Notes: generated by a model from the letters alone, not told the origin. DNA of 64,000 bases from an uncultured Gammaproteobacteria bacterium (GCA_964596415.1 CAZQSX010000001.1:37508-101507), one strand, 5' to 3'. Counted from the first letter of the stretch, positions 6,632-47,035 are shown. A program made the numbers and translations.

Positions 6632-6889
6632 ATGACTGAGTGCCAGAGCTGTGGGATGCCTCTATCCCTTGGCAATTATGGAACAAATGCAAGCGGTACC
6701 TATAATGATGAGTACTGCAGTATCTGTTTTCAGAAAGGACAATTTACTGATCCTGATTTAACTCTTCCTATTATGACTCAGATTATTGTTAACAGACTTG
6801 TTGGAGAAGGAATGAATGAAGATGAAGCCCGTATAAAAACTCAAACGATTGTTCCAACCCTCAAACGTTGGAGAAACGTTACGATTTAA
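6632..6889 (+). CDS. putative zinc-ribbon domain protein (Zn_ribbon_2-like)
   Basis: CQSCGMPL...GTNASGTYNDEYCSICFQKGQFT contains two CxxC pairs, typical of this small family. The start was taken at MTECQ (the ORF track starts at 6593). Confidence 0.6.
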   Translation: MTECQSCGMPLSLGNYGTNASGTYNDEYCSICFQKGQFTDPDLTLPIMTQIIVNRLVGEGMNEDEARIKTQTIVPTLKRWRNVTI

Positions 6890-10495: not shown

Positions 10496-11626
10496 ATGAA
10501 ACAACGAAAAAAGAAAAAAATATTTCTCATTGTGTTTCTTCCAATTTCAATTCTTATTGTACTTATTATTATTAGGTTTTTTTCTCTGTTTTGGGGAGTA
10601 GTTGTTGATAAAAACATTCACATAAAAAAGAATGAACAAGGGGTTATTAATATATTACTTTTGGGGATAGGAGGGGGCGCACATGACGGACCAAACTTGA
10701 CCGATACTATTATTCTTGCATCACTTGACCCTAAAAAAAATACAGTAAATCTTATTGCTATCCCCAGAGATTTATACGTGCCTGCTCTAAAGGGAAAAAT
10801 AAATAGAGTGTATTCTGATGGGGAAGAAAAAGGGAAAGGAAAAGGGATACTTTTAGTAAAGTCTGCAATAAATTCAGTAACAGGAATAAAGCCAGATTAC
10901 GTGGTTGTTATTGATTTTTCAGGGTTTGTGAAATTGGTAGATTTACTTGGTGGGATAGATGTTATGGTTAAGAATCCACTGACAGATTATGAGTACCCAA
11001 TTACTGGTTCAGAAAATGAGCTTTGTGGATATGAACAGGATAGTATTGCTTCTTTTTCTGCACAGATTGCGACTGGTTCTGCAACAGAACCGGAAATATT
11101 TCCCTGCCGATATGAAACACTTCATGTAGATGCTGGAGATATTCATATGGATGGTGAATTAGCATTAAAATTTGTTCGGTCAAGACACGCGATAGGGATG
11201 GAGGGAACTGATTTTGCAAGATCAGCGAGACAGCAAGCAGTGATTAACGCAGTAAGAAGTAAGGTACTCTCCCTTGGTACCTTAACAAATCCGGTAAAAA
11301 TTGTGGGGATAATTGACATATTAACTGATCATATTAAGATGGATATTGCAGAAAATGAGATAGATGATTTCATAAAACTTGCCCAGAAAATGAAAGATGC
11401 AAAGATAACAAATTACGTATTAGATATGGGGGATGAGCGGGTAGCAAGACCTGGATTACTTGTTCATCCTGATATTTCTGAAGAGTATGGATTTCAGTGG
11501 GTCTTGGCGCCAAGACTTGAAGGGAATGATTTTTCAGAAATAAAAGAATATATAACCTGTATTGTTCTGGGTAAAGTTTGCGAAGTGACGAAAAATGCAG
11601 TAATTGTTTCAGAGCCTAATAAGTAA
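10496..11626 (+). CDS. LytR-CpsA-Psr (LCP) family cell-wall polymer transferase
   Basis: N-terminal TM, then INILLLGIGGGAHDGPNLTDTIILASLDP...NLIAIPRDLYV (the LCP signature). Confidence 0.8.
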   Translation: MKQRKKKKIFLIVFLPISILIVLIIIRFFSLFWGVVVDKNIHIKKNEQGVINILLLGIGGGAHDGPNLTDTIILASLDPKKNTVNLIAIPRDLYVPALKGKINRVYSDGEEKGKGKGILLVKSAINSVTGIKPDYVVVIDFSGFVKLVDLLGGIDVMVKNPLTDYEYPITGSENELCGYEQDSIASFSAQIATGSATEPEIFPCRYETLHVDAGDIHMDGELALKFVRSRHAIGMEGTDFARSARQQAVINAVRSKVLSLGTLTNPVKIVGIIDILTDHIKMDIAENEIDDFIKLAQKMKDAKITNYVLDMGDERVARPGLLVHPDISEEYGFQWVLAPRLEGNDFSEIKEYITCIVLGKVCEVTKNAVIVSEPNK

Positions 11627-13844
11627 GTTTGTAAATTATTGTTTTCTCCTGGGATCCTTTGAAGATTATTTTTCCAAGCGTTTTAAATTTTTCTTCTGAA
11701 ACATTATATTTTTCTTTTTCCTCATTTCCCACTATTACATATTCCACCTGATATTTTTTAAATAACGGTATTGAAGTTGCAAGATCTCCTTCATACATTG
11801 TTCTTACCTCCTCGATTCTTGGTGCAGGAATGTCATAGCTTCCACGCCATAACCATTCGTGTACTGTCCAGCCCAATATCGTTGGAAGACCGGTGTTTGC
11901 AGAAATTCGAGCGGCGTTCGTATAGGAATCTCCCTGAGCCTCTAAAATAACTGGTTGATTAGAGATAGATGAATTTAGAAATTGAATTGCTTGTAGGTCA
12001 TCTGGATTTATTTTTTTAATATAATCAGTTCCGTTAAGTCCTTTGTATTCTCTTAAGTCTGAATAATAGGATCGAATTGCAAAATAAGGATAAATAAGAA
12101 CTCCTGTCAGAAGGACAAATGTTATAAGAAAGAAAATTATTTTAAGTGCAACATTTTTTATACGTGAAAAAAGGAAAACTATGATATAGGCACTTGCAAG
12201 CGTAAGTAGCATAAATGCTTGATAAACTAATTTAAACATTGTATTTGCTCGGTAATGCGCTGGATAAATATCTTTTGCATATAAAAACTCAGGCGTGAGA
12301 ATAAGTAGAAATGAAATAATAATAATAAGTAGAATAAAAATATTTGTCATATTTTTGGGAAATGCTAAAATGTAGGACTTGTCTTTTTGGGAAAATTGAA
12401 AGATTTTTTTTGTTCTCATCATTAGAAACGCAACAAATGAACCGGTATAGAAAATAAAAAATCCGTATAAAATAAGCAGTTGATAAAGTTCAGATTTTTG
12501 ACAGTGATCTTTTTCAAATAAAAAAGGTCCAACCTTTCCGATATTCGTTAAGAAATCAGGAGCACATATAATTCCTACTCCAGATACAAACGGTTTGAAA
12601 AAGATATTGAAAGGTAGAGAAAATAAAAAATAGAAAATGATAATCAGTCCCACTGCGTATATGTTTTCTTTTATAAATTTTTTAAAATTATGAACGGCAC
12701 GTATATAGGGAAATACTAAGTGTTTTTCTTTTTTATGCATGGAAAAGTTGAGTAGTTTAATTTTTAGAATAATTATTATGAAAGTGGTGAGCCCTAAATA
12801 AATGATCCCGTCCCATACATTTGTCATATACATAATTGCAAGAAAAAGAGCTAATGTTGTAGTTTGAAGTTTTGTAAAAACCCCGTTTTTTAATACAGTA
12901 AAAGAAAGCGCCAGTGTTAAAAGTACGAATGGAATATCTAGAACGTGTCCATGCAAATCAGAGACAATAAATGAATACAGTGGAAATTCATGGATTGTTA
13001 AAGGGATAAATCTAGTCGCATTTGGATACCAGTAGTCATTTGGGAATGTATTTGGTAAAAAAACAAGATTCCATGGGGGAGTTGGTTTCTCTCCTATATA
13101 TGGTTGAAATAATGTATATATTGTATGTAGGTTTCCTGACAGGGATAGTAGTGTGCCGCCAAGAATTCCTCCTAGTATGCGTTTTTTTACTTCAAACTTT
13201 TCTAAGAAGTTGAAAAGAATGGAAAATCCACCACTTAGTGTAAATGCAAAAAGTGTAGCAATCATTAAGTTATAGGAAATATAGTTAGGAACCATAGATA
13301 ATTTTGTGAGCACTGCAGTTGCTAAATGACCAAAGAAATAATAATTTATGGGAAGTGGAGTAAACCACATATCTTTTGGAGGAAAATATTCACTTCTTAA
13401 GATTGAGTTTACAAACCCATAATCCATGAATTTTTCAAGCGATTGAATGCTTGGTTCATGTGCTCGAACATACGCCCAGAAACAGAGCGCTGAGAAAAAA
13501 AGAAGTTCTTCAAAAATAATTACTTTTGCAAGAAAAGAGACTTTTTTTGAAATGTGAATATTTTGTTTGAGGGTTTTTTTTAAAATATACATATTTCCAA
13601 TAAGTGAGATAAGTAAAACAAAAAGTATGGAGTAAACGTTAAACGGTAGAATGTGAAGCGTTCCTAAAACCAGAAGTACATAAGACAAAATGCCAATTCC
13701 CAATACTTTTGAGAAAATATAAAAATAGTCCTGACTTTTATGAAATAAAAGCATGGAGAGGGGAAGGAAAATAAATCCTATTCCTAAAAGTATCGCCCAC
13801 CATTGTAATATATATAAAAAATCACCTTGCATGAATGAAAACAA
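11616..13844 (-). CDS. large polytopic membrane protein (>12 TM) with a C-terminal extracytoplasmic domain; putative GT-C-fold glycosyltransferase (DUF2298/YYY-like?)
   Basis: 742 aa, a hydrophobic N-terminal two-thirds, and a C-terminal soluble domain of about 150 aa. Family assignment is uncertain. Confidence 0.55.
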   Translation of the reverse strand: MFSFMQGDFLYILQWWAILLGIGFIFLPLSMLLFHKSQDYFYIFSKVLGIGILSYVLLVLGTLHILPFNVYSILFVLLISLIGNMYILKKTLKQNIHISKKVSFLAKVIIFEELLFFSALCFWAYVRAHEPSIQSLEKFMDYGFVNSILRSEYFPPKDMWFTPLPINYYFFGHLATAVLTKLSMVPNYISYNLMIATLFAFTLSGGFSILFNFLEKFEVKKRILGGILGGTLLSLSGNLHTIYTLFQPYIGEKPTPPWNLVFLPNTFPNDYWYPNATRFIPLTIHEFPLYSFIVSDLHGHVLDIPFVLLTLALSFTVLKNGVFTKLQTTTLALFLAIMYMTNVWDGIIYLGLTTFIIIILKIKLLNFSMHKKEKHLVFPYIRAVHNFKKFIKENIYAVGLIIIFYFLFSLPFNIFFKPFVSGVGIICAPDFLTNIGKVGPFLFEKDHCQKSELYQLLILYGFFIFYTGSFVAFLMMRTKKIFQFSQKDKSYILAFPKNMTNIFILLIIIISFLLILTPEFLYAKDIYPAHYRANTMFKLVYQAFMLLTLASAYIIVFLFSRIKNVALKIIFFLITFVLLTGVLIYPYFAIRSYYSDLREYKGLNGTDYIKKINPDDLQAIQFLNSSISNQPVILEAQGDSYTNAARISANTGLPTILGWTVHEWLWRGSYDIPAPRIEEVRTMYEGDLATSIPLFKKYQVEYVIVGNEEKEKYNVSEEKFKTLGKIIFKGSQEKTIIYKLTY

Positions 13845-13856
13845 TTATATACTGTT

Positions 13857-15287
13857 TTAATATTCTTGACCAGAAGAGACAAGCCCACATTTTTTTACAG
13901 CTTTGCTATGAGAAAATTCTAATAGGTACGCAGTTATAGAGTCATTTTGTGGATCTGGGAATAGAAATCTACAATATTCTTGAGGGAATGTTATATCTTG
14001 GCGAATTATTTCAGTTCTTTTTTTAGCAATGAGCAGATACTGATAATTATATGTAATACCATCATTTCCTGAGAGATGATAATTAGTTGCATATACATTT
14101 TGCCCTAAAACGTTCACTTTTCCCCAGATAGTATTTGCAATTGGATCAACTGAGAAAAAAAGTCCTAAAATAGTGAGAAGAAATACTACAAAAATTGAAG
14201 TAGCCTTTACGAAAAAGTTTTTAAGTTGTGTAACAACCACAGAAAACCAAAGGAGAAGGAAGGGAATTATGGGAAGCGCGTATCTTGGGATTGTATAAGT
14301 TTGAAACGTTAGAACAGTTAATGCATACAAAATACAAAAAATTAAAATGAAAAGTATAGTTTTTGTTTGAGCATCAAATCGGGTTACTGTTTGAATGATT
14401 TTTTTTCGATTTTCCTTTCTTATTAAAATAATAATAGTTATAAAAATAGAAATCGCGATTATTATCCAATTGAAGTTTAAAAATAATAGCTGAAGAAAAT
14501 GCTGCGTAGCATATTCATTAAAAATTTTAAGTGTAACTACATTATTAACAATTGTATAGAATGTTCCCTGGTCAGCTGTGTCCGTAAAAATCCAATCGCT
14601 CCACTCACCTTTACCGTTCATATTTAAAAAATTGTCCCAAATATAATAAGCAGCAATAGGAATAATATAAAAGAAAATGTATTTAATTTGCTTCGATTTT
14701 TTTGTAAGTAATATAGTAGTGATATCCAAAAGTAAAAATGTTCCAACTATCAAAAGTCCAGTTTCCTTAGTGAGAATAATTAAACAGAGCAAAAGCGAAA
14801 AAAGTAGATGCTTTTTTTGCAAATATACTAACAAAGTCCAGATGAGAATAATTGTTATAACATAGTCTATTAGTGAAAAAAATGCAGTTGAAATAAGCAG
14901 AGGATTCATAGAAAAGATTATAGTTGAGATTTCTGCGGAGGGTTTACTTGATACTTTTTTGGTTAAGAAATACATTCCTATTATTCCAAGTACTCCCAAG
15001 ATGTATCCAAAGAGATTAAATCCTATACTAGAAAGTCCAAAGAACTGGAGAAGAAAAGCCGAAGACACAATTTTTAATGGTGGGTGTATCGAAGAAAATT
15101 GAGAAAAATAAAGATCAAATCCACCATTAAAAAAATAATACGATTTTACAAAGTCAATATTCCCATCAAGATATGGAAAGCTATTTATAAAAGGAAGAAA
15201 TAACAAGGAGAATATAACAAAGGAAATAAGAAGCGATATGTTATTTCGTGCAGTTTTTAGATACGTTGTAAATTTCAAATTCTCCAT
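13857..15287 (-). CDS. polytopic membrane protein, putative GT-C-fold (ArnT/PMT-like) glycosyltransferase
   Basis: 476 aa with more than 10 predicted TM helices and an acidic first-loop motif (PYLDGNIDF). Overlaps the upstream gene by 47 nt. Confidence 0.55.
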   Translation of the reverse strand: MENLKFTTYLKTARNNISLLISFVIFSLLFLPFINSFPYLDGNIDFVKSYYFFNGGFDLYFSQFSSIHPPLKIVSSAFLLQFFGLSSIGFNLFGYILGVLGIIGMYFLTKKVSSKPSAEISTIIFSMNPLLISTAFFSLIDYVITIILIWTLLVYLQKKHLLFSLLLCLIILTKETGLLIVGTFLLLDITTILLTKKSKQIKYIFFYIIPIAAYYIWDNFLNMNGKGEWSDWIFTDTADQGTFYTIVNNVVTLKIFNEYATQHFLQLLFLNFNWIIIAISIFITIIILIRKENRKKIIQTVTRFDAQTKTILFILIFCILYALTVLTFQTYTIPRYALPIIPFLLLWFSVVVTQLKNFFVKATSIFVVFLLTILGLFFSVDPIANTIWGKVNVLGQNVYATNYHLSGNDGITYNYQYLLIAKKRTEIIRQDITFPQEYCRFLFPDPQNDSITAYLLEFSHSKAVKKCGLVSSGQEY

Positions 15288-16866
15288 TCTTATATTCTAA
15301 TTGAAATTCTCTCTCAAATACATCTGATATTTTAGGTTGATCGGGGTTGTTTATTTGGCTTCTATTAATTTCTATATATGAGATTTTATTTTTAAGAAGT
15401 AATCTGCAAATTTCTCTTTTGGAAGCAGATGAAAACATTATGCTTCTTTCACTTCCTCTTTTTTCCGTGTCATACCCTGCTGACCAAGCAAAATATGGCC
15501 ACCCTAAAAATATTTTTCTTCCAACAATTGATTCAGGAGCAAGAAGAAATGTATTATTAAGAAAAATACTATCAGGAGCTGTGTTGTATAAAATCCATTG
15601 CGCCGTTTTATTATGAGTGTAATCCGAAAGTTGTATTTTTTGATCATTCAGGATGGGGAATAGATCTATAATTCCTGACAGTGTAAGAAAAAACACGAGT
15701 AGAATAGTAACAGGTTTCATGAATTTTTTACGCCAAAGCTTTATGAGAATAAATCCGGTAAACATACTACCCATAAGCATAAAATAATTAAAAAATTTGT
15801 GGTTAGCAGCCATTTCTGGAGAAAATTGAAATAAATTTCCTATTACAAACATGCTAAAAAATGCGAGAAGTACTTTTTTTTGATTTTTATTTGCAAAGAG
15901 AAAACCAAGAATGATAAGTAAAAAGTGAAGTCCTAAATTCATAAACCAATACAAGGTAAAATTTGCAACTGAAAGATTTTCAGAGATAAGATATCCCGGT
16001 TTAAAAACAATACCAAAAGCATTTCCTCCCGAATTCATGTAGAGATATTGGGGATACGAGAATAAACCTGCCATTAAAAGTAGAATTAGCAACTGGCTTC
16101 TTATTTTTGAAAAGAATAATCCAAGAAAAACTAAAACAATTCCGGTCATCATAAAAACGGCTACATGAAAGTAAAAAGAAAGACCAAGTAAAGACCCTAG
16201 TAGCAAGGATTCTGTAATTCCAAGATTTTTCTTTTTAGAAAATATAGGTTTTAACACTTGAGATATTACAAAAAGTGAAAGAGCGAGTGCTGCTGCAAAG
16301 TGTCTCTGGTTTGTATAGATGTTCAGATTCCAGAATGCAGATACAATACCAGTTCCATAATAGGGTGCGAACGAAGAGAAGGAGGTGTTTTTAATTATAT
16401 CCTGAATGTATAAAGTTGAAAGTGGATGTTTTTGAAAGAAATATATGAATGAGAGCGATCCGTTAAATAAAAAAAAGATTACGGTAAGAATTCCAACTGC
16501 CCTTGATGAGAAAACTAACTTTGCAAAAGAATATAACATAACAAGGAGGAGAAAAAATCCAATACTTGATGGAATATTTAATGCGAGATTTATGGGAAGT
16601 CCTATTTTTTCAAGTAGTCCCACAAATGCATAAAACAAGAAATGGTAGTGGATTGGTTCACCTGGGAATAAAGGGTATTCTACTGGAAAATTCCATCCTA
16701 ACGAAAAAGAGCGTATAAGCGGTATGTGCGAAGCGAAGTCGCTCCATAATTTTGAACCAATCAGTATGTTTCCGTTTTGGTATGAGAATGTTTGAAGCAT
16801 TAATATGCATGAGAAAAGGAAGCAGAGTCCAAAGAAGACGCGAATGAGGATTTTGTTAGAAAGCAT
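15241..16866 (-). CDS. polytopic membrane protein, putative GT-C-fold glycosyltransferase
   Basis: 541 aa with about 12 TM helices. Third of three co-oriented GT-C-like genes. Confidence 0.55.
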   Translation of the reverse strand: MLSNKILIRVFFGLCFLFSCILMLQTFSYQNGNILIGSKLWSDFASHIPLIRSFSLGWNFPVEYPLFPGEPIHYHFLFYAFVGLLEKIGLPINLALNIPSSIGFFLLLVMLYSFAKLVFSSRAVGILTVIFFLFNGSLSFIYFFQKHPLSTLYIQDIIKNTSFSSFAPYYGTGIVSAFWNLNIYTNQRHFAAALALSLFVISQVLKPIFSKKKNLGITESLLLGSLLGLSFYFHVAVFMMTGIVLVFLGLFFSKIRSQLLILLLMAGLFSYPQYLYMNSGGNAFGIVFKPGYLISENLSVANFTLYWFMNLGLHFLLIILGFLFANKNQKKVLLAFFSMFVIGNLFQFSPEMAANHKFFNYFMLMGSMFTGFILIKLWRKKFMKPVTILLVFFLTLSGIIDLFPILNDQKIQLSDYTHNKTAQWILYNTAPDSIFLNNTFLLAPESIVGRKIFLGWPYFAWSAGYDTEKRGSERSIMFSSASKREICRLLLKNKISYIEINRSQINNPDQPKISDVFEREFQLEYKNGEFEIYNVSKNCTK

Positions 16867-16870
16867 AACG

Positions 16871-18235
16871 TTATTGTACTATTATTTCTGTAATCCTTTT
16901 TCCTAGCTCTACCGCGTAATTTGTTCCTCTATCCCAAGGGTATACCTGTTCAATGTTTGCAAGATAAACATTTTTAAGAGGGGTTTTAAATTCTGGAATC
17001 TGTTTTGAATAATTTGGAAAAATAATGGGCTGGGCAAATGGCGCATGGAATAGTTCAGATCCAATGATATATTTTTTATAGTTAGGGTTTATTTTTTTAA
17101 GCCAGGGGTCATATAACTTAAGAAGTTGCTGTTCAGTCATTTTGAATCTTGGATCAGTTATTTCCATATAATTACCTAAATAAACGAGATGCTCATTCCC
17201 ATAGTGCTTTTTATCCATAAAATTCGTATGTTCAACGATTGCCAAAATCGGGGATTTTAAATCACACATGTTCAGCCAATATGTATTATCTGAAAAAAAC
17301 GGTTGTTTTAGTCGAAGTACTAAATTCATGGCTCCAATTCCAACTAGTTTTCCTAACTTCTCAGAATAATCCTTGGGGAGTGAGGGTGTAATTTTTTTAA
17401 AAAGAAATGATGGGGTAGTTACAATGACTGTATCATAATTACTAACTACTAACTTTTCTAGACCCACAGTTGAAGCCGAGGATCGCAAGCTTTGCTTACC
17501 ACGAACTTTTTTAAATGTCACTTGAGGATTATTATTTGATGTTAGGTTAACAACCTCTGTTTCATAAAAAAACTTTGCCCCATTTTTTTCCGCCGCTTTT
17601 TGCAGGTGAAGCGCAAACTCCAAAAATCCTCCTTCAGGATAAGCCAAGCTTGGAGTTCTTTTATAGATTCTTGCCCAAAACCAACTGAGAGATACGTCTT
17701 TTGCATATTTTCCCAGCTTGTTATCCATTAAAGGTTTCCAAATCATGTCATATCCTTTTTTTCCCATGAACTTTTTAAGGTACGGTTCTGCTTTGTATTT
17801 TTCAAGTGGGCGCCAGATAGGATTATATTTAAGAAGGGCAAGGGAGACTCCCATGCGGATCCGGTCGGTTAAAGAAAGCTTTGGAAATTTAAGAAGAGAT
17901 GTGGGGGAATCAAGTTGGAAAATTTTGTCATGCACAAATGATGAAGTTTTAGGTCTGACTATTTCAACTTGATGGTGAATCTCAGAGGCAAGATCCAGCA
18001 CATTTTTATCATTTGTGAACCAATGATGATAATGCTTTTCAAGCGTCCAGTCCCACTTCGTCGTTTTACTCCTCAGTGCAGGCACTTTTTTTCTTTGATT
18101 GACAGGCTTAAATCCGACTGCAAGACCTCCCGGTTTTTCATCGAGCTCAAAGACATTAACAGAATGACCACCCTTTGATAGATAGTAGGCTGCTGAAAGA
18201 CCGGTAAAGCCGGCACCGATAATTGCAATTTTCAT
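16871..18235 (-). CDS. FAD/NAD(P)-binding oxidoreductase (amine-oxidase / phytoene-desaturase / protoporphyrinogen-oxidase superfamily)
   Basis: N-terminal Rossmann dinucleotide motif MKIAIIGAGFTGLSAAYYLSKGGHSVNVFE...GG. Length 454 aa. Confidence 0.75.
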   Translation of the reverse strand: MKIAIIGAGFTGLSAAYYLSKGGHSVNVFELDEKPGGLAVGFKPVNQRKKVPALRSKTTKWDWTLEKHYHHWFTNDKNVLDLASEIHHQVEIVRPKTSSFVHDKIFQLDSPTSLLKFPKLSLTDRIRMGVSLALLKYNPIWRPLEKYKAEPYLKKFMGKKGYDMIWKPLMDNKLGKYAKDVSLSWFWARIYKRTPSLAYPEGGFLEFALHLQKAAEKNGAKFFYETEVVNLTSNNNPQVTFKKVRGKQSLRSSASTVGLEKLVVSNYDTVIVTTPSFLFKKITPSLPKDYSEKLGKLVGIGAMNLVLRLKQPFFSDNTYWLNMCDLKSPILAIVEHTNFMDKKHYGNEHLVYLGNYMEITDPRFKMTEQQLLKLYDPWLKKINPNYKKYIIGSELFHAPFAQPIIFPNYSKQIPEFKTPLKNVYLANIEQVYPWDRGTNYAVELGKRITEIIVQ

Positions 18236-18282: not shown

Positions 18283-19656
18283 CTAAAGAACAAAGAAGAG
18301 AACCGATCCTGCTACTATAAAAAGTAAAGCTGCTCCTGTCAAGAGGATGCCTTGTTCTGTCGTGCCAGTTTGGGGTAGTGGAATTTTTGTTGGAACAAAA
18401 GTAGTTGGAGTAGGGCTTGCTGGAGTAAGTGTTTCATTTGGCGCTCCAACAGGAATCGATGTAACGGTTATGCCAGTTGGTGTTGGTGTAACCGTTGTAA
18501 GAGGCTCAGAGGTTGGACTCACCGTAACACTTTCTGTAGGTGTAGGCGTTGGAGTGGATGGCGTTAGTGTTGCAGAAGGAGTAGCAGTCTCTGCAATTTG
18601 AGAACCACTTGAAAATACAGAAAATTCCTGTTTAACACTTCTGCCACCGCTTGTAACAGAGATGGTGTGGTCACCGGTTGAGAGTGGTGCACTAGACCTA
18701 AAAGACCAGTTTCCATTAGGCGACGATCTTAATTGTGCTGCATTTTTACCATCAATAGCTATTCTGACAATACTTCCTGCCGGTGCGGTTCCTCTAAATT
18801 GTGGACGAACATCTATAAACGTTTCGTTTTCTTTTGGCGACAACACTTGGAGAGTATTTGAAATATTTGGGTCAGGCTCTTTGAAAAGTGAAGATGGAGT
18901 AGCCAGTAATTGTTCATTTATATCCGCTATGAATTCGTAATTTTCTGATAGACTAATTGGTGGTATTGAGCCATTTGGGATAAAAGTGGTAGTTATCGTA
19001 GATGTTAGATTTTTTTGCAGTGCTTGAATTTGAATATTAATATGTTCAGAAGTATCTAGGTATTTTGTTCCGTCACTCGTTTTTAATAATCGAGCAGGTA
19101 TTGAATAGTTTCCATCATTATCTGTGACAACGGATGTAAGCATTCCATCAGTGGGAGTTATAAGAATTAATGTGTCGGATCCCTTACTACCATCAGGTAA
19201 TAAAATTTTTCCTTGCATGCTTACATCCTCTGGTTTTTCTGATATTTTTTCTGATGTTTTTCCTTGAAACAATTCATCTGATTCTGGGTAGGCAGTTCCA
19301 TTTGAAAGAATTTTATACCCATAATTATTGTTCGGTTTGAGACCGGGAATTGTTATTTCATGGGAAAAATATGCTTTCTTTTCATCCCCATCTCTATCAT
19401 CAAACAATAATGTTTCGGTCCCATCAATCGTTAGAGATATTGCAGAAACTGTTTTTTCATGCGTTGTAAACGCAACAGTAAATGATGAGCCGGTTCTGTT
19501 TGTGACTGAAACATTTTGAGGTTCCTGGTCCGGGGTGGCTCTTGTTATGGTAAAAATTCCTTGATTTATTAAAAGCATTGTAGTTGCTATGCCGCCAATT
19601 AAAAGAAACAGCGCAAAAACTGTTGGTATTCTTCTATCAAAAAATCCTTTTTTCAT
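18283..19656 (-). CDS. LPxTG-type surface protein (FN3-like, carboxypeptidase-regulatory-like and Ig-like domains; T/P/S-rich stalk)
   Basis: N-terminal signal anchor. C-terminal LPQTGTTEQGILLTGAALLFIVAGSVLFFVL carries an LPxTG motif plus a hydrophobic helix. CarboxypepD_reg-like GKILLPDGS...VVTDNDGNYSI. TPSxTP linker. Confidence 0.8.
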   Translation of the reverse strand: MKKGFFDRRIPTVFALFLLIGGIATTMLLINQGIFTITRATPDQEPQNVSVTNRTGSSFTVAFTTHEKTVSAISLTIDGTETLLFDDRDGDEKKAYFSHEITIPGLKPNNNYGYKILSNGTAYPESDELFQGKTSEKISEKPEDVSMQGKILLPDGSKGSDTLILITPTDGMLTSVVTDNDGNYSIPARLLKTSDGTKYLDTSEHINIQIQALQKNLTSTITTTFIPNGSIPPISLSENYEFIADINEQLLATPSSLFKEPDPNISNTLQVLSPKENETFIDVRPQFRGTAPAGSIVRIAIDGKNAAQLRSSPNGNWSFRSSAPLSTGDHTISVTSGGRSVKQEFSVFSSGSQIAETATPSATLTPSTPTPTPTESVTVSPTSEPLTTVTPTPTGITVTSIPVGAPNETLTPASPTPTTFVPTKIPLPQTGTTEQGILLTGAALLFIVAGSVLFFVL

Positions 19657-19660
19657 AATT

Positions 19661-19972
19661 TTAAAACTCTCCTTCTGCGGTTATTGTTGGTATTAAGTTT
19701 TGCTCCAAAAGAAGTGCTGATTTTGAAGATGTTGTCTCTTCCTCTGTTGTTGAGCTAATCGTTGACGGTTGTGATAGGTCAGCTTTTATCTGTTTTCTTT
19801 TTTTTAAATTTGAAATAGTTTCCCTATCAAAAGTTGCCTTGATAGGAACTATTTGAATTTGTGTAACTTCTGAAATTGTTGTTGTTGAGAAGTTGTGATA
19901 AATAGTTACTCCTATCCAAACAAGAACTATGAACGTTGTGAATATAGTAAGATAAACAAGATTTTTTAGCAT
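19661..19972 (-). CDS. small single-TM protein (103 aa), possible pilus-assembly accessory
   Basis: TM helix LVYLTIFTTFIVLVWIGVTIY. Sits between pilO and the LPxTG gene in the same operon-like run. Confidence 0.45.
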   Translation of the reverse strand: MLKNLVYLTIFTTFIVLVWIGVTIYHNFSTTTISEVTQIQIVPIKATFDRETISNLKKRKQIKADLSQPSTISSTTEEETTSSKSALLLEQNLIPTITAEGEF

Positions 19973-19975
19973 AGC

Positions 19976-20611
19976 TTAATTAGTAATATCTTTTGAAAAA
20001 TATACTTTTCCGCCTATAGATGTTTTATATACGTTTCCTGAAATATTTCCCGTTGTTATTCTATCAATACTGATAACTCTATTAAATGAGATGATGGTAT
20101 TAATAAAGCTGTTTATGTTTTTTTCAGCGCCTACTGCTTCAAGCGAGAAAGTATATGAATAGAGATCGTTTGCATTATTCTCAAGCGGAAAAAATTCAAC
20201 AGTACCAGAGGTAAGTGATTGTATATTTACGTTATTATCTTGTGCGATTGTTTCAACCTGTCTCATAAACGTTGGAATTTGTGACGAGGATGGTACCGCA
20301 CCATAAATATAAGGAAGATCTTTTTCTAGTAATTTATATTCTCGAGTCAAATTAGCAAGAGCATTCAGCTTGGTTTCCAAGGCATCAGCTATTTTTTTAT
20401 TATCTTCATACTGTTTATTAAGCGTTGATATTGTTGAAAAGGCAGGCAGAAGAGCAAATATTCCAAAAATAGAAATGGTAAGAAAACTGAAAACAAGGTA
20501 TGTGTATGTAATTACTTTCTCTTTATTTACACCTGTACCCAAAGGAGTACTATTTGGATTTTTTCTTGGTTGAATTATTGGTTGTTGTGTATTTGAAGAT
20601 GTAGGTATCAT
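19976..20611 (-). CDS. pilO: type IV pilus assembly protein PilO-like
   Basis: Short cytoplasmic N-terminus, one TM, a coiled coil (NKQYEDNKKIADALETKLNALANL), then a ferredoxin-like C-terminal region. 4-nt overlap with upstream pilN. Confidence 0.6.
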   Translation of the reverse strand: MIPTSSNTQQPIIQPRKNPNSTPLGTGVNKEKVITYTYLVFSFLTISIFGIFALLPAFSTISTLNKQYEDNKKIADALETKLNALANLTREYKLLEKDLPYIYGAVPSSSQIPTFMRQVETIAQDNNVNIQSLTSGTVEFFPLENNANDLYSYTFSLEAVGAEKNINSFINTIISFNRVISIDRITTGNISGNVYKTSIGGKVYFSKDITN

Positions 20612-21162
20612 ACTTCTTTTTTGTTAGACAATAACTGTACAGTTATTCTGAACCGAACTCCCTGATCAAGCGTTGAAAGCTCCTCCATGGAGATTGTTTC
20701 AACATTTGGATTTTTTTTCAGCGCTTCAACAAATGAGTTAAGAGAAAAAACAGAACTTGCCTGACCATCAATTGCGACTGTGTTGTCAGTAAGGTTTAAA
20801 CTGTTTGAGAGTAGAGCGCTTTGAGAAGCAAGCGAGAGTATGTCTTTTAAGAATTGAACTTTGGTTTGCGTATCAGAGGTTATTGATTGGATAGTATCTA
20901 TGCGTGACTGTAGGTTTCTGAATTGTTTTTCTTGCTGAGCTTGTGCCTGAATAAAAATTTGCTGGTTTTTGATTTCGTCATTCAAGTCTACAATTTTTTG
21001 ATCTATAAAAAACCGATATCCAAGCGCACCAAGCGCGAGAAGCTCTATTACTATTACAATAATTCTTCCTCGGCTAATAGCCCATTTTATAAATATATTT
21101 CCAGTGTTGGTTTCCTTCTTTTTTCCAAGGTTAATATTGAGACGATAGGCGTCATTCTGCAT
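20608..21162 (-). CDS. pilN: type IV pilus assembly protein PilN-like
   Basis: N-terminal ~33-aa cytoplasmic segment (LNINLG), one TM (IIVIVIELLALGALGY), a long coiled coil, and a C-terminal beta-rich domain. Confidence 0.6.
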   Translation of the reverse strand: MQNDAYRLNINLGKKKETNTGNIFIKWAISRGRIIVIVIELLALGALGYRFFIDQKIVDLNDEIKNQQIFIQAQAQQEKQFRNLQSRIDTIQSITSDTQTKVQFLKDILSLASQSALLSNSLNLTDNTVAIDGQASSVFSLNSFVEALKKNPNVETISMEELSTLDQGVRFRITVQLLSNKKEV

Positions 21163-21208
21163 AAATTTAGTTTAGATTGTTTTTGGGGGATTGTCAAAGA
21201 AAAAAAGC

Positions 21209-21529
21209 CTATTTTGTAGTTTTTTTAGAAGTTGTTTTTTTGACTGTTGATTTTGATTCAGGTTTTTTTTCTGTGGTTGTAGGTTTTGTTGTTTTTTTGG
21301 GAAGTAAGGTTGAAATTTTTGATTTTATTCTTGCAGCTTTATTTTTGTGGATAAGGTTTTTCTTAACAGCTTTGTCTACGAAAGAAAATGCAGCTGATGC
21401 AGCTTTTTGGGTTGGATTTTTTGTTGCTTCCTTTACTGCTTTTTCCACAGAAGCTCGAAACAGGTTATTTTCCTTTTCCTGTTTTTTATCTCGTCTCAAT
21501 TTTTTTATTGCAGATTTAATAACTGGCAT
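21209..21529 (-). CDS. rpsT: 30S ribosomal protein S20 with Lys/Thr-rich C-terminal extension
   Basis: MPVIKSAIKKLRRDKKQEKENNLFRASVEKAVKEA... matches the bS20 N-terminus. About 45 extra C-terminal residues (KKTTKPTTTEKKPESK...). Confidence 0.85.
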   Translation of the reverse strand: MPVIKSAIKKLRRDKKQEKENNLFRASVEKAVKEATKNPTQKAASAAFSFVDKAVKKNLIHKNKAARIKSKISTLLPKKTTKPTTTEKKPESKSTVKKTTSKKTTK

Positions 21530-21757: not shown

Positions 21758-23401
21758 ATGCGAAAATTTTTTCAGAAAGGTCTTGGTGCGCTCACCTCAA
21801 AGCAAACTAATATTTTCTCTGCTGCTCTATTCATAATACTTACGACCGTATTTTCACAGTTTTTGGGACTTTTTAAATATAGGATTCTTGTTTCATTTTT
21901 TGGCGCATCTGAAGATTTAGGTGTATTTTTTGCTGCGTTTAGAATTCCAGACTTTATCTTTTCAGTCGTTATTGCAGGTGCTCTTTCAACTTCTTTTATT
22001 CCAATTTTTTCTGAATATGTAGCACAAAACAAAAGAAAAGAAGCAGATCTTTTTACCTCAAGTCTTTTAACGCTTGGGGTTCTATTTTATATTGTTGTAA
22101 GTATTATAATTATCATATTTGCACTCCCATTAAGCTCTGTTATCGCGCCTGGATTTTCTCCTGCAGAGCTGAGGCTTATGGCTCAGTTTATGATTGTAAT
22201 TCAGCTTGCACAGTTGTTTTTCATTTTAGGAACTGTTGCTACTGCCGTTCTTCAATCACTGCAACACTTTTTAATTCCCGGAATGGCAACTGCGTTTTAT
22301 AACTTAGGAATTATACTTGGACTACTACTTCTTGCTCCTTTTATCGGAATTTATGCAGCAAGCATAGGTGTTGTGATTGGATCGTTTTTGTTTTTTATTA
22401 TCCAAATACCAGTTCTTATTCATTCAGGGTTTCGGTATAGGCCTATTTTAGATTTTAAAAATGGGGTTATGAAGGTAATTCGCCTTATGGTTCCACGGTC
22501 TATGACTTTAATCGTTACGCAATTTGCAATAACAGCTAATGTTTTCTTTGCCTCATTTTTAGGAGCAAGAAGTCTTGTTATTTTTGATCTCGCGCAAACA
22601 CTCGTGCTAGCTCCTGTTGTTTTGTTTGGTCAATCAATTGCACAAGCGAGCTTTCCGGCTTTATCTCAGAAAACAAATGACAAAGAAACTTTTACGCATA
22701 TTTTTGTATCATCATTTACGCAAATTTTATATCTTACGCTTCCTATATCAGCGCTTCTTGCAGTGCTTCGGATTCCTGTTGTTCGGTTGTTTTTTGGCGC
22801 AAGCAGATTTGACTGGGTTGCAACGGTTGATACTGGACGAACACTCGCTTATTTTTCAGTTGCTATTGCCCCTGCAGCCCTTATTTATTTATTTGCTCGT
22901 GCTTTTTTTGCGTATAAAGACACAAAAACACCACTTATGGTAACGACTATTGCAGTAGGAGTAAATATTTTTCTTTCATACCTATTTTTACTTGTTTTAC
23001 ATCTTCCAATATTTTTTCTTGCAGCAGCGTATTCAATTTCTAACGTTTTAGCAATTGTGTTGTTGTTTATTTTACTTGACAGAAAAATCTTGCTTCCAAA
23101 AAAACAAATAATAACAGTAAGTGTGAAGATAGGCACTTGTGCATTTTTAACGGGAATTGCGCTTTATATTCCCATAAAACTTCTTGATCAATTAGTTTTT
23201 GATACAACAAGAACTATAAACCTAATACTTTTAACCGGAATTGCATCACTTGCTGGGTTTTTAACATACGTATTTTTTACGTGGATATTTAGAATTCAGG
23301 AGGCATCATACGTGTTGGCAGTGTTGAAGCGATTTAGTCAAGGGAAGAGTTCATTACGAGATATTAAAGAGATTATTGATGGTCCCAAGCAAACCCTCTA
23401 A
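21758..23401 (+). CDS. murJ: lipid II flippase MurJ/MviN
   Basis: 547 aa, 14-TM-type profile. N-terminal FSAALFIILTTVFSQFLGLFKYRILVSFFGASEDLGVFFAAFRIPDFIFSVVIAGALS is the canonical MurJ start. Confidence 0.85.
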   Translation: MRKFFQKGLGALTSKQTNIFSAALFIILTTVFSQFLGLFKYRILVSFFGASEDLGVFFAAFRIPDFIFSVVIAGALSTSFIPIFSEYVAQNKRKEADLFTSSLLTLGVLFYIVVSIIIIIFALPLSSVIAPGFSPAELRLMAQFMIVIQLAQLFFILGTVATAVLQSLQHFLIPGMATAFYNLGIILGLLLLAPFIGIYAASIGVVIGSFLFFIIQIPVLIHSGFRYRPILDFKNGVMKVIRLMVPRSMTLIVTQFAITANVFFASFLGARSLVIFDLAQTLVLAPVVLFGQSIAQASFPALSQKTNDKETFTHIFVSSFTQILYLTLPISALLAVLRIPVVRLFFGASRFDWVATVDTGRTLAYFSVAIAPAALIYLFARAFFAYKDTKTPLMVTTIAVGVNIFLSYLFLLVLHLPIFFLAAAYSISNVLAIVLLFILLDRKILLPKKQIITVSVKIGTCAFLTGIALYIPIKLLDQLVFDTTRTINLILLTGIASLAGFLTYVFFTWIFRIQEASYVLAVLKRFSQGKSSLRDIKEIIDGPKQTL

Positions 23402-25741: not shown

Positions 25742-26839
25742 TCAGAGAATGAAAAGGAAGGCGCCTACCACAACGGCAACTGCTGCGGCACCTGCAACCA
25801 TAAGCGCTGTTTCAAAAGTTCCTGTCACGGGAAGTGTGGGAACAGCTGTTCCGCCTGTACCACCAGTTGATCCACCTGTTGAGCCAGATCCTGAACCTGC
25901 AGTGATGGTAACTGTTTGCGTGCATGATCCAGCTGTGCTTGTGAGCCCTCCATCATCAGTAAGCGTTGCCGTTACGTTATAGGTGCCAGCAGTTGTAAAG
26001 GTATGAGCTATTTGAACATTTACTGAATTTGTTCCAATTCCTCCACCTGTTGTTACAGCTTGGGCAGGTCCGTCTCCAAAGTTGAATGAAGCATTAGAAA
26101 TGGTGCCTCCATTATCTGACCCAGTTGCTGTAAATATGATTGCGTAGGGTGCTGCTCCAGCTGCTGATCTATCAAGTGAAAGTGCGGTGCAGACAGGTGC
26201 TTGGTTTGCCAAAGGAGTCGGGCTTAAAGTTCCTGTGGGATTGGTTCCACCGACTCCACCGGTTGGAGTAGGGGAAAGATTAGTGCCATCAGTTACCGTG
26301 ACAGATGCTGTGCCTCCACCCTGGAGAACGTTTTCTGTTTCACCATCTGCTGAAGCAAGCGAAAATGCTTGTGATGGTGGGGTATCAAACTTAATAATAG
26401 ATGGACCACTTGTTAGTTTTTTACTTTTAACAGTCAAAGTTGCCGCTTTTGTAACGGTTTGGATTGCACGAGCAACATCATTTGATGTTGACATGGCAGC
26501 AGTTACTGTGCCTGATTGGATATCAGGGCCTTTTAAGCTTACTGGAAATGCTGTTTCATTTCTCTCTAGGCTTACAATTTCAAAAACGTCAGGATCAACG
26601 GAGATGGTTACATCTAGAATGGAGACTACGTTTTGTCCAGGATCTACAAAAATATCAAACGTTGCGGTTTCGCCAAGTCCTATTTCAGCAGTTGCCGGTT
26701 GGAATGAAAGGTTTGTGGAAGGCGCAGCTTTAGATTTAAGATTTGTTTGTTGACGAACTACAAAAAGCGTGACAGGAATAACGATTAGTAAAAGAAGTAT
26801 GTTTCCTAAGATAAACCATTTATTTTTTAAAATACCCAT
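25742..26839 (-). CDS. LPxTG-type surface protein with cohesin-like and PKD-like domains
   Basis: Signal anchor (FILGNILLLLIVIPVTLFVV), a cohesin-like domain, a PKD-like region (YNVTATLTDDGGLTS), a Gly/Ser/Thr linker, and C-terminal LPVTGTFETALMVAGAAAVAVVVGAFLFIL. Start taken at the internal Met (MGILKNKWF); the ORF track starts at 26947. The gene is visibly G+C-richer than its surroundings. Confidence 0.75.
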   Translation of the reverse strand: MGILKNKWFILGNILLLLIVIPVTLFVVRQQTNLKSKAAPSTNLSFQPATAEIGLGETATFDIFVDPGQNVVSILDVTISVDPDVFEIVSLERNETAFPVSLKGPDIQSGTVTAAMSTSNDVARAIQTVTKAATLTVKSKKLTSGPSIIKFDTPPSQAFSLASADGETENVLQGGGTASVTVTDGTNLSPTPTGGVGGTNPTGTLSPTPLANQAPVCTALSLDRSAAGAAPYAIIFTATGSDNGGTISNASFNFGDGPAQAVTTGGGIGTNSVNVQIAHTFTTAGTYNVTATLTDDGGLTSTAGSCTQTVTITAGSGSGSTGGSTGGTGGTAVPTLPVTGTFETALMVAGAAAVAVVVGAFLFIL

Positions 26840-29120: not shown

Positions 29121-29945
29121 ATGGTTGATGTGCATTGTCATTTAAATTTCTATAAATTTGAAAATGATTTTGATCAAGTGATAAAAGATGCATTTCAGGC
29201 TGGAGTTAAAACCATTGTTAATACGGGAACAAGTATTGAATCAAGTAAAAAAGCAGTTGATCTAGCCTCGAAATATCCTAATTTGTACGCTATTGTTGGT
29301 ATTCATCCGCATCATGCGGACAAATCAGATGAAAAATATGAGGGCTTGATGCCCGAGGATTGGCTGGAGCAACTCGAAAAATTAGCTAAAAATGAAAAGG
29401 TGATAGGAATCGGAGAAATAGGGATGGATTATTGGAATTACCGGACAAATGGGATAGTTCCAAAAGATTTGCAGGAAGATGCTTTTAGAAAACAAATTGA
29501 ACTTTCCATAAAGCTATCTCTTCCGCTTCAAATTCACACGCGTCTTGCGTGGGATGATACGCTTTCTATACTTTCTGATTATGTAAAAGACTTGCAGGAT
29601 GTGCCAGGAATGTTTCATTGCTTTTCAGGAAGTACTGAATTTGCAAAAAAAGTTCTTGACGCAGGTTTTTATGTAGGATTTGATGGGAACATTACGTATC
29701 CAGGTATTCCACCAGGAGAAAGTACTGCGTTGTCAGAACTTGTGAAGTATGTGCCAATTGAGCGTATAGTTACTGAAACAGATAGTCCATTCTTGTCACC
29801 ACAAATTCTTCGTGGAACCAGAAATACCCCTAAAAATGTTATAATTATAGCAGGGGAGATCGCCCGGTTAAAAGGTATATCCTTTGAAGAGGTAAATACT
29901 ATTACCACAAAAAACGCACAAACAGTTTTTAGAAACATTGTATGA
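29121..29945 (+). CDS. tatD: TatD-family metal-dependent hydrolase/DNase
   Basis: MVDVHCHLNF, GIGEIGMDY, and His/Asp/Glu ligand pattern through HCFSG and FDGNITY. Confidence 0.85.
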   Translation: MVDVHCHLNFYKFENDFDQVIKDAFQAGVKTIVNTGTSIESSKKAVDLASKYPNLYAIVGIHPHHADKSDEKYEGLMPEDWLEQLEKLAKNEKVIGIGEIGMDYWNYRTNGIVPKDLQEDAFRKQIELSIKLSLPLQIHTRLAWDDTLSILSDYVKDLQDVPGMFHCFSGSTEFAKKVLDAGFYVGFDGNITYPGIPPGESTALSELVKYVPIERIVTETDSPFLSPQILRGTRNTPKNVIIIAGEIARLKGISFEEVNTITTKNAQTVFRNIV

Positions 29946-31438
29946 ATTATTATTTGAGCCTGTTTTTTACCAGATATCCGAGAAAATCAATAAGACTTCT
30001 TGAATTAATCCCTCCTTTGACCGCCCTATTTCTTATTAGTATCCCGTTTTGGGGATCGTTTTTCTTTCCGGTAATTCTTGCTTACTTTATTATATTCTTT
30101 GATATTTGGTGGCTTTATAAGTCTGTAAATTTGGCAATTTGTTCATTTATTGCGTCTAGAAAAATAAAAATTGCTGAAAAAACAGACTGGATGGAGAAAG
30201 TAATGAGTTTGCCACAAAGTTTAAAAATACATCATATTATTATCATCCCTACCTATAAAGAATCGCTAAATAAGCTCATGGAGACCATAAATAGTATCCA
30301 GTCTCAGACATTTCCCAAAAAACAAATACATATTTATTTAGCAATGGAAGAGAGGGAGGCAGAGGCTTTTCAGAAAGCAAAAGAATTGATAAAGCATTAC
30401 AAAAATGTTTTTGGAACAATAACGGCAACATTCCATCCGGATTTACCAAATGAAGTAAAAGGAAAATCTTCGAACCAAGCATTTGCAAGTGTTAAAGCGT
30501 ATAAGGAGTTAGTTGAGGGGGGTCGCATTGATATAGATTATGCGACAATCTCATCTGTTGATGCTGATTCTATTTTTGATGAGCAATATTTTGCGCACGT
30601 AGCTTACACATTTCTTACTTGCAAGAATCCTCATCTCTCATTTTTTCAATCTGCAAATGTTTACTATAATAATTTTTGGAAAGTTCCAGCTGGAACTCGG
30701 GTTATTGCATTTTTTGGAAGCTTATTGAGGACTTCACTTCTCGTTCAGGGATTAAAACTTATTCCTAATTCAACATATACACTTTCCTTTAAGCTTTTGA
30801 AAAACATCGGATATTGGGATACAGATGTTATTCCAGAAGACTATCGGGTATTTTTTAAAGCATTTTTTATGAATGAAGGAAAGGTTTCAGTTGAGCCAAT
30901 TTTTCTTAAAACGTCTATGGATGCACCTCAATCTATGACGTATGTTGGAAGCCTTATGAATAAATATAACCAAGAAAGAAGATGGTCTTGGGGAATTTCA
31001 GATGATGCTGTGTTTCTAAGATGGTGGTTGACCGTAAAAAATGTTCCTTTTCTAAAAAAGACATATTTGGTTTCAAATGTTTTGCTAGATCATATTTTAT
31101 GGCCAGTAAACTGGTTTATTATTACCATTTCTGCAAATTTAGTCGTATTTTTGAATCCTGTTTTTTCAAGAACAAGTCTTGGATATACGCTTCCTCAACT
31201 TTCAGGGTTCATATTAACGGTATGTTTATTTACTCTTTTTATTATGATTTATGTTGATTTTGATCTTCGTTCAAATAAATACGCGAAACCTTCTAAAATG
31301 AAACAGTTTATGTTTCCTTTAGAATTTGTGCTTATGCCGATTGCTGGATTTTTACTTTCCACAATTCCAGCGCTTATGTCACACCTACAACTCATACGAG
31401 GAAAGAGGATGGAGTATAAAGTAACTGAAAAGGTCTAA
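29942..31438 (+). CDS. membrane-integrated processive family-2 glycosyltransferase (cellulose/chitin-synthase-like)
   Basis: N-terminal TM pair, a GT-A domain with DxD (SSVDADSIF), the QxxRW motif (QERRWSWG), then a C-terminal multi-TM region. ATGA overlap with tatD. Confidence 0.8.
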   Translation: MNYYLSLFFTRYPRKSIRLLELIPPLTALFLISIPFWGSFFFPVILAYFIIFFDIWWLYKSVNLAICSFIASRKIKIAEKTDWMEKVMSLPQSLKIHHIIIIPTYKESLNKLMETINSIQSQTFPKKQIHIYLAMEEREAEAFQKAKELIKHYKNVFGTITATFHPDLPNEVKGKSSNQAFASVKAYKELVEGGRIDIDYATISSVDADSIFDEQYFAHVAYTFLTCKNPHLSFFQSANVYYNNFWKVPAGTRVIAFFGSLLRTSLLVQGLKLIPNSTYTLSFKLLKNIGYWDTDVIPEDYRVFFKAFFMNEGKVSVEPIFLKTSMDAPQSMTYVGSLMNKYNQERRWSWGISDDAVFLRWWLTVKNVPFLKKTYLVSNVLLDHILWPVNWFIITISANLVVFLNPVFSRTSLGYTLPQLSGFILTVCLFTLFIMIYVDFDLRSNKYAKPSKMKQFMFPLEFVLMPIAGFLLSTIPALMSHLQLIRGKRMEYKVTEKV

Positions 31439-31463
31439 CGACCATTTTTCTATAACTTTGCGT

Positions 31464-31478
31464 CTTGCCTTTGGCAAG
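31464..31478 (+). terminator. weak hairpin (CTTGCC-ttt-GGCAAG) followed by TTTAAAAGTT after the GT2 gene
   Basis: 6-bp stem with a 3-nt loop. The downstream run is A/T-rich but not a clean U-tract. Confidence 0.3.
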
Positions 31479-31486
31479 TTTAAAAG

Positions 31487-33377: not shown

Positions 33378-33378
33378 T

Positions 33379-40634: not shown

Positions 40635-40641
40635 ATAGATA

Positions 40642-46965: not shown

Positions 46966-47035
46966 TGATTTTACGACGTTCTGGAACATAACTTTACCAG
47001 AATATAGGCTCTTTTTCAATATTGAAAAAATTCCC

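Follow-up and report, generated by a model that had tools for sequence, protein, structure and literature searches.

A 64-kb stretch of DNA (64,000 nucleotides, CAZQSX010000001.1:37508-101507; hereafter the window, with coordinates counted from its first letter) was analysed, and on its minus strand the type IV pilus genes pilN and pilO were found to run directly into genes for a small bitopic protein of 103 amino acids (aa) and a 457-aa stalk-like surface protein that ends in an LPxTG-type anchor signal. The juxtaposition of pilN-pilO with such a surface gene, to which an initial annotation of the window had drawn attention, is real and recurs across the whole class Microgenomatia of the Candidate Phyla Radiation (CPR). 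The novelty lies in the arrangement and in the two components that have been added; the parts themselves, pilus alignment proteins and an LPxTG-type anchor, are of kinds already known. The block is tentatively read here as a pilN-pilO operon with two lineage-specific envelope accessories of the pilus alignment complex, which would tie the pilus platform to the cell wall, pilM being encoded elsewhere; our confidence in this reading falls a little short of even.

A central role in host attachment, feeding on hosts and DNA uptake is commonly ascribed to the type IV pili of CPR bacteria, and we know of no account of how the pilus machine is held in an envelope that has neither an outer membrane nor a secretin. 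The class-wide operon offers concrete candidates for this missing envelope part of the CPR pilus, and it places several hundred small proteins of one family, named 'hypothetical', in a context that can be tested. Full-text literature searches returned no description of the operon, of the small-protein family, or of sortase signals or substrates in the CPR.

Organization and conservation of the four-gene block

With 30-39% G+C the window is AT-rich. Its set of genes is one typical of the CPR class Microgenomatia, and the nearest named relatives of the locus are genomes of Candidatus Levybacteria. Five genes occupy the minus strand from 18283 to 21529, namely rpsT, pilN (20608..21162, 184 aa), pilO (19976..20611, 211 aa), the gene of the small bitopic protein (19661..19972, 103 aa, with one N-terminal membrane helix, from an unnamed family) and the gene of the stalk-like surface protein (18283..19656, 457 aa, with three beta-sandwiches, a Pro/Thr linker and the LPxTG-type C-terminal signal). 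The coordinates and gene descriptions in the initial annotation were right for the last four of these genes and for a second LPxTG protein that is described below, and the 4-nucleotide (nt) overlap of pilN and pilO that it had claimed was found as the ATGA read on the minus strand (GAAGTATGATACC), where the start of pilO overlaps the stop of pilN. A gap of 3 nt separates pilO from the gene of the 103-aa protein, which is followed after 4 nt by the stalk gene, and no terminator-like site was found by a pattern scan of the coding strand inside the four-gene block.

Both pilus gene assignments, which had been proposed from the sequence and left to a profile search, were upheld. PilN matched PF05137 with 32.5 bits over residues 120-177 (curated cut-off 22.8) and has the build of a cytoplasmic N-terminus, a single membrane helix, a coiled coil and a C-terminal PilN domain. 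A profile made from five PilN orthologues did not match a PilN structure in the PDB, and the assignment is therefore based on Pfam, on this architecture and on the pairing with PilO. PilO matched PF04350 with 32.5 bits (cut-off 22), and a profile of nine PilO orthologues reached the solved PilO structures of Myxococcus (3jc8, E=3.6e-5) and P. aeruginosa (2rjz, E=0.046). Orthologues are named PilO in some source databases, and at NCBI they are called type 4a pilus biogenesis protein PilO.

Public genomes and metagenomes were searched with PilO, which gave 4 genome loci and 29 metagenome loci, and a search with the stalk protein gave 58 family members that extend down to 23% identity and reach into Woesebacteria and Daviesbacteria. 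The order pilN, pilO, small protein, stalk protein was present at every related place with enough sequence, and the small gene sat between pilO and the stalk gene wherever that interval was covered. Five distant loci found through the stalk protein (23-30% identity, including Woesebacteria and Daviesbacteria) and one found through the small protein had pilN-pilO directly upstream and the small gene in between. The block recurs in Levybacteria, Woesebacteria and Daviesbacteria at only 23-45% identity, and the tight spacing (gaps of at most 4 nt, or overlaps) is retained in the distant lineages. The downstream genes change, being a flavin adenine dinucleotide (FAD) oxidoreductase and GT-C-like membrane proteins in Levybacteria and unrelated genes in Woesebacteria, Daviesbacteria and the loci L043 and L044, and rpsT is inverted in Woesebacteria; the four genes remain together.

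The block had been described as lacking pilM, which is correct for the locus and for all of its relatives, as no pilM adjoined pilN at any locus examined, rpsT or other genes being found upstream instead. The window was found to contain no pilM, pilB, pilC, pilT, pilD, prepilin-like gene or sortase, and prepilin-like N-termini were absent from the window and from the six related loci checked. For the pilus system as a whole the description probably does not apply. The PilN residues I10-N11-L12 and K15 are invariant across five orthologues at 38-41% identity, and the Woesebacteria orthologue has ININLLPEDP at this N-terminal motif, known as INLLP. In other, studied bacteria this short cytoplasmic part of PilN is the PilM-binding segment (PMC4471445), and since PilN retains it here, pilM is probably encoded elsewhere in the genome, together with the other pilus genes. 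We infer that the absence is a property of the locus, which fits a closed Microgenomates genome that is reported to have PilA, minor pilins, PilD, PilB, PilT, PilC and PilM at a single locus, with PilN and PilO unmentioned (PMC7143001), and also the reported enrichment of the PilM, PilN, PilO, PilB/T and PilC families in the CPR (PMC6744442).

The gene rpsT, for ribosomal protein S20 (21209..21529, minus strand; PF01649 Ribosomal_S20p, E=3.9e-11), lies upstream of pilN, as had been reported, at a distance of 46 nt, and occupies the spot where pilM would be expected. Most relatives share this upstream position of rpsT, which in Woesebacteria is encoded on the opposite strand. A consensus scan of the rpsT-pilN gap gave a promoter-like site, TTGACA-17-TAAACT (21169..21197, minus strand; a pattern match only), whose -10 element (TAAACT) ends 6 nt ahead of the pilN ATG. 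A Shine-Dalgarno-like sequence is not visible, and the transcript from which pilN is translated might have little or no leader. Downstream of the block, the FAD-dependent oxidoreductase (16871..18235, minus strand; Amino_oxidase, E=2.3e-17) is preceded by another promoter-like site, TTGACA-17-TATAGT, inside the 3' end of the stalk gene (18314-18342; also a pattern match only). This oxidoreductase is downstream of the block in only part of the class.

Several observations were made on the surroundings of the operon. Genes for wall biogenesis crowd around it in the window (6886-7905, 10496-11626, 11616-16866, 21758-23401 and 29942-35366), encoding a FemAB-family transferase, a LytR-CpsA-Psr (LCP) protein, large membrane proteins of the DUF2298, DUF2079 and PMT_2 types, MurJ, glycosyltransferases and a UbiA prenyltransferase, and much of this neighbourhood is syntenic across Microgenomatia. 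In the Levybacteria locus L009 (9007-9312), and also in L013, L014, L022 and L024, a 101-aa open reading frame (ORF) that starts MKHYFVYIMTNWNDKVLYAGVTNN lies between rpsT and pilN; it resembles a GIY-YIG nuclease, by reading of the sequence only, and the operon is undisturbed by the insertion. Locus L046 (CAYSBN010000002.1), a 314-kb genome contig labelled Candidatus Saccharimonadales at NCBI, has the full Microgenomatia-type gene order (cohesin protein, lepA, murJ, rpsT, pilN, pilO, small protein, stalk protein, FAD oxidoreductase, PMT_2, DUF2298), so that its label may be wrong; the Gammaproteobacteria label of L006 is open to the same doubt.

The small protein and the anchored surface proteins

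No relative of the 103-aa protein was found in Pfam, NCBIfam or the PDB. An exhaustive search of 1.84 billion cluster representatives gave 509 clusters at E<=1e-3; among the 150 clusters listed, all but one were stand-alone proteins of 84-140 aa, the exception being a low-complexity match, and those that bore names were called 'hypothetical'. Orthologues measured 56-131 aa, the one from Daviesbacteria being just 56 aa long. The layout consists of an N-terminal membrane helix (with W19 and Y25-H26), the motif TSTIS-x5-QI-x-PI-x3-FD-x2-T[IL]-x2-LK-x-R and a variable low-complexity tail, with about 35 conserved residues outside the membrane. In the 150 representatives listed, F48 is invariant, I44 is conserved in 95% and P43 in 90%, and the alignments indicate that the small protein is under strong constraint. 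The predicted structure comprises a confident helix over residues 2-30, followed by a non-globular, unstructured segment.

It had been suggested that the 103-aa protein be compared with PilP, and homology with PilP was rejected. A profile of 16 orthologues gave only chance matches against all PDB sequences (E>=1.2, unrelated proteins); the protein has no Cys or lipobox, its model has no HR beta-sandwich, and no Pfam or NCBIfam entry matched. The small protein may be, at most, an analogue of the disordered arm of PilP.

The tail of the small protein often ends in a weakly conserved T/S-G-S-A-x-x-L/F, as in ATGSAGL and TGSAQQQL of orthologues, the corresponding end in the window (19661-19700) being TAEGEF. 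Among 149 representatives the commonest last residues were L (53) and P (45), and the C-terminal tail might act as a docking peptide.

The structure of the stalk protein was modelled from a 34-sequence alignment of database homologues with 23-84% identity, which gave a mean predicted local distance difference test (pLDDT) score of 75, and of 82-96 in three beta-sandwiches (18616..19524, minus strand). These are FN3-like (aa 45-135), transthyretin/CarboxypepD_reg-like (aa 146-240) and Big_13 Ig-like (aa 270-347). In Pfam, Big_13 was matched with 30 bits over a cut-off of 27, and fn3, Pur_ac_phosph_N and CarboxypepD_reg were sub-threshold. The model has an N-terminal hydrophobic helix (aa 6-31; 19564..19641, minus strand), which a near-invariant R-I-P-T precedes; only 10 columns are invariant in the 34 sequences, and P11 and T12 of this motif and A40 belong to them. 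The invariant Ala40 could fit a putative signal-peptidase site with cleavage between TRA and TP, and the invariance of P11 and T12 would be unusual for a disposable signal peptide; the helix may be either cleaved or kept as an anchor. The sandwiches are followed by a disordered linker rich in Pro, Thr and Ser (aa 355-426; 18379..18594, minus strand; extending to aa 432 in the model; pLDDT <50), whose composition across the family is 27% T, 19% P and 10% S.

The stalk protein ends ...KIPLPQTGTTEQGILLTGAALLFIVAGSVLFFVL-stop. The LPQTG pentapeptide (aa 427-431; 18364..18378, minus strand) contains G431, which is conserved in at least 90% of the 34-sequence alignment and is invariant in 11 close orthologues, and the C-terminal 26 residues that follow it (aa 432-457; 18286..18363 to the stop, minus strand) include a predicted helix over residues 433-456. 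This segment has no Lys or Arg; its sole charge is Glu434, near the start, and the last 22 residues, from G436, are uncharged.

A census of the motif was made in 57 anchored family members, of which 35 have [LIV]Px[TS]G, 4 have [LIV]PxAG, 2 have xPx[TS]G and 16 have a degenerate motif or none. The frequency of [LIV]Px[TS]G, 61%, compares with 1.5% expected from the composition of the linker, a 40-fold enrichment at a fixed position, and among 3363 linker positions the same motif turned up at only 3. A chance origin of LPQTG from a linker rich in Pro and Thr was thereby ruled out family-wide. Close relatives vary at this site, with LPPTG in a 98%-identical strain and PPPTG, PAPTG, PAPPG, TSPGG or VPPSG in other Levybacteria. 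The enrichment at a fixed position argues that selection maintains an LPxTG-type sorting signal, which is eroded in some lineages, and the erosion in some Levybacteria is real. What had been called an LPxTG signal in the window therefore stands as an LPxTG-type signal across the family, with the qualification that it is degenerate in the 16 members just counted.

The lack of a basic tail had been pointed out in both LPxTG proteins of the window, with the proviso that a frame or sequencing error might hide a charged end. Orthologues of the stalk protein from more than 30 independent assemblies share the position of the stop, at which the codons differ (TAA, TAG and TGA), and the in-frame sequence beyond the stop is unrelated between orthologues. 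Sequencing error, frame error and read-through were excluded on these grounds, and the missing tail is real. The tail-less signal is common and not absolute, since a basic tail is absent from 35 of 54 members and the other 19, about a third, carry a short one with one or two Lys or Arg (TRGGLSAL, NKKGI, SRRGI, KEIERE). No link was found between the quality of the motif and the presence of the tail, the motif being canonical in 12 of the 19 tailed and in 23 of the 35 tail-less members. A tail-less signal of the same kind was found in other proteins of Microgenomatia. The hidden Markov models (HMMs) for LPXTG anchors scored below their cut-offs (TIGR01167, 14.2 vs 15.9 bits; PF00746, 16.1 and 12.5 vs 20), and because standard LPXTG models miss these proteins, the observation matters for predicting the surface proteomes of uncultured bacteria. 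The census provides a first description of sortase-type signals in Microgenomatia: the motif is retained, the charged tail is frequently absent, and in some lineages the motif erodes.

The second tail-less LPxTG-type protein (25742..26839, minus strand, 365 aa) is encoded beside lepA and is a conserved neighbour outside the operon. It ends ...VPTLPVTGTFETALMVAGAAAVAVVVGAFLFIL-stop, that is, in LPVTG followed by 25 uncharged residues, and its orthologues end in VPPTG, IAPTG, VPPPG or MPISG and a helix, with no tail. Its layout comprises an N-terminal signal helix, a cohesin-like domain, a PKD domain (PKD_4, 34.8 bits, and PKD, 31.1 bits, both over cut-off) and a Gly/Ser/Thr linker. The cohesin-like domain is assigned through homology only, as the Pfam Cohesin model did not detect it in the protein of the window: over its N-terminal 180 aa, this protein aligns (BLASTP, 1e-19) with one of locus L043 (655-1737) that bears a Pfam Cohesin match, and the equivalent neighbour in L046 (1-1249) has a weak one.

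The stalk orthologue of Daviesbacteria (locus L041, 8001-8945, JACPDA010000004.1) has lost the third (Ig) domain, the linker and the anchor and has a dockerin at its end; no cohesin partner turned up in the Daviesbacteria locus. What selection maintains may be that the stalk protein stays attached to the envelope at its C-terminal end, whichever way this is achieved. The stalk protein and the 365-aa protein might be partners in some lineages, and the domain content suggests cohesin-dockerin tethering on CPR surfaces.

Possible roles of the block

In the type IV pilus machine, the 'alignment' proteins PilN and PilO are bitopic. If the small protein and the stalk protein are accessories of this complex, the stalk protein would be exported through Sec, and its N-terminal end and the small protein would associate at the membrane with the ectodomains of PilN and PilO, a contact that we infer from the operon. 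The C-terminal end of the stalk protein would be fixed to the envelope, either by covalent attachment through a sortase, an enzyme described as near-ubiquitous in Microgenomates (PMC6744442), or simply by retention of the C-terminal helix in the membrane, and the two proteins would in this way link the pilus platform to the cell wall where an outer membrane and a secretin are lacking.

A more specific form of this proposal is rather doubtful. In it, the stalk protein would be covalently attached to peptidoglycan via the tail-less signal while its membrane end is held by the small protein and PilN/PilO, so that a wall-anchored pilus collar or stator would result; the Daviesbacteria variant would be non-covalent, its dockerin resting on the neighbouring cohesin-bearing protein, and the whole would be a functional replacement of PilP-PilQ built from unrelated parts. 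Should it be true, the sortases of Microgenomates would accept substrates without a charged retention tail.

Several points weigh against an accessory role. The one thing that connects the small protein and the stalk protein functionally with PilN and PilO is the linkage of their genes, and pilin, ATPase, platform and peptidase genes were not found near the block. A Foldseek search with the stalk model returned generic tandem FN3/Ig arrays only and no pilus-specific match. The genes murJ, rpsT, lepA, those for LCP and FemAB, and those for GT-C-like membrane proteins are also largely syntenic across the class, so that an envelope supercluster with an inherited gene order could account for part of the linkage within the block. 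As to anchoring, the motif is eroded to forms such as PAPPG, APGSS or KPGDA in the 16 degenerate members, and variants of the PAPPG type suggest that at least some lineages manage without a canonical cleavage site; given this erosion and the sub-cut-off HMM scores, processing by a sortase is not assured. No sortase was found near the block in any locus, and no SrtA-like ORF in 476 kb of related loci, by a phmmer search with S. aureus SrtA and a scan for the TLxTC motif.

The strongest of the competing explanations, which we regard as possible and less probable than the accessory role, is that the genes are neighbours without being partners. The stalk protein would then be an ordinary surface protein anchored in the wall or membrane, such as an adhesin or an envelope strut; its co-transcription with pilN-pilO would reflect only an ancestral order of envelope genes retained in these compact genomes, and the small protein would serve either the pilus pair or the stalk protein, or neither. 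The wider synteny around the block speaks for this explanation, and rpsT adjoins the block as faithfully as the stalk gene does, yet is clearly unrelated in function. The folds of the stalk protein are generic, and the neighbouring cohesin/PKD protein has the same type of anchor and is outside the operon. Inherited order alone accounts less well for the short gaps and overlaps that were kept in distant lineages, and for the four genes remaining together where the genes downstream of them change. Moreover, every place at which the stalk or the small protein was found has pilN-pilO upstream, and every pilO place with sufficient sequence has both downstream genes.

Two further explanations were considered, and both are improbable. 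According to the first, the stalk protein would be cargo and not a component, the PilN/PilO machine aiding its export or its passage through the wall in a manner like type II secretion in a cell with no outer membrane. The direct coupling of the stalk gene to pilN-pilO is compatible with this, and secretion-like use of pilus parts has been reported for Clostridium perfringens; however, the stalk protein has its own Sec-type helix and C-terminal anchor signal and so needs no special exporter, and only the two alignment genes, not an ATPase or platform gene, are linked to the stalk gene.

The second, of equally low probability, is that PilN and PilO are co-opted paralogues that no longer serve a pilus and scaffold some other envelope structure along with the small and the stalk protein; the pair is indeed detached from all other pilus genes and embedded among wall-biogenesis genes, and one report gives a precedent in some flagellar motors, which have co-opted PilM/N/O-like pilus alignment proteins (PMC10823254), but the PilM-docking motif of PilN is invariant, the orthologues carry the PilO names given above, and the pilM-containing pilus locus of the closed Microgenomates genome, for which no pilN or pilO is listed (PMC7143001), fits a single pilN/pilO pair.

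Elsewhere in the window, observations were made that concern other systems. CPR genomes are generally poor in nucleotide biosynthesis, and a near-complete de novo pyrimidine gene cluster was found at 38923-47046, with genes for aspartate carbamoyltransferase (46000-47046), the small (44963-46003) and large (41715-44966) chains of carbamoyl-phosphate synthase, an amidohydrolase that may be dihydroorotase (40642-41733), a phosphoribosyltransferase (40011-40634) and a dihydroorotate-dehydrogenase-like protein (38923-40014). A 752-aa membrane protein (52087-54345) that resembles TrbL/VirB6 weakly (21 bits, short of the cut-off of 25.9) is flanked by a gene with a tRNA-binding domain and by two ClpB-like AAA+ genes (54439-57204 and 60335-62731). 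A 717-aa protein with Kelch repeats and a peptidase_C39-like domain is encoded at 2222-4375, and a nickel superoxide dismutase at 5346-5813.

Comparison with known systems

The arrangement had been described as unusual for type IV pilus loci and for sortase-pilus loci alike, and the juxtaposition is real; the locus is nevertheless not one of a sortase-assembled Gram-positive pilus, as no sortase was found in the 476 kb of related loci and no pilin in the window or the six related loci checked, and the domains are of FN3, transthyretin-like and Big_13 types, with no matches of the CnaB/SpaA type. The Pam pilus of the CPR (bioRxiv 10.64898/2026.03.03.709456) is alike in having CPR-specific Ig/FnIII surface proteins with C-terminal membrane helices. 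Membership in that system was rejected: the 365-aa protein matched PamR (NCBIfam CPR_pilus_PamR) weakly, at the level of an FnIII domain, with 17 bits against a cut-off of 300, and there are no chaperone-like genes, donor-strand pilins or ATP-synthase neighbourhood.

A classical sortase signal consists of LPXTG, a hydrophobic stretch and a Lys/Arg tail. The signals described here share the pentapeptide where a Pro/Thr linker meets a hydrophobic segment, and differ in that the proteins of the window have no basic tail, the motif is degenerate in 16 of 57 family members, the HMM scores are below cut-off and no sortase gene is nearby. Cohesin-dockerin tethering is paralleled by the dockerin end of the Daviesbacteria stalk orthologue and the cohesin-like domain of the neighbouring protein; the stalk protein of the window has no dockerin.

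The type IV pilus loci of Gram-positive bacteria and Saccharibacteria are alike in their monoderm setting and in having PilN and PilO without PilP and PilQ (PMC4471445; PMC11623550). In those loci pilM-pilN-pilO sit with pilB, pilC, pilD and pilins, whereas here pilN-pilO stand apart and are joined by two lineage-specific genes.

The connectors PilP and GspC resemble the small protein in position, after pilO, and in having a membrane-tethered, extended and largely unstructured extracytoplasmic segment, PilP having a long disordered arm (PMC4471445). The small protein differs from them in lacking the HR beta-sandwich domain and any sequence match to solved structures.

From the pilMNOPQ operon of diderm type IVa pili (Pseudomonas, Neisseria, Myxococcus), the block differs in that pilM is outside the operon, the third gene encodes neither a lipobox nor a beta-sandwich, and the fourth encodes Ig/FN3-like sandwiches and an anchor and no secretin, CPR bacteria being without PilQ (PMC6744442). 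It is alike in the adjacent and coupled pilN-pilO, in the PilM-docking segment of PilN, and in the two further envelope genes that follow here too, at the positions of pilP and pilQ.

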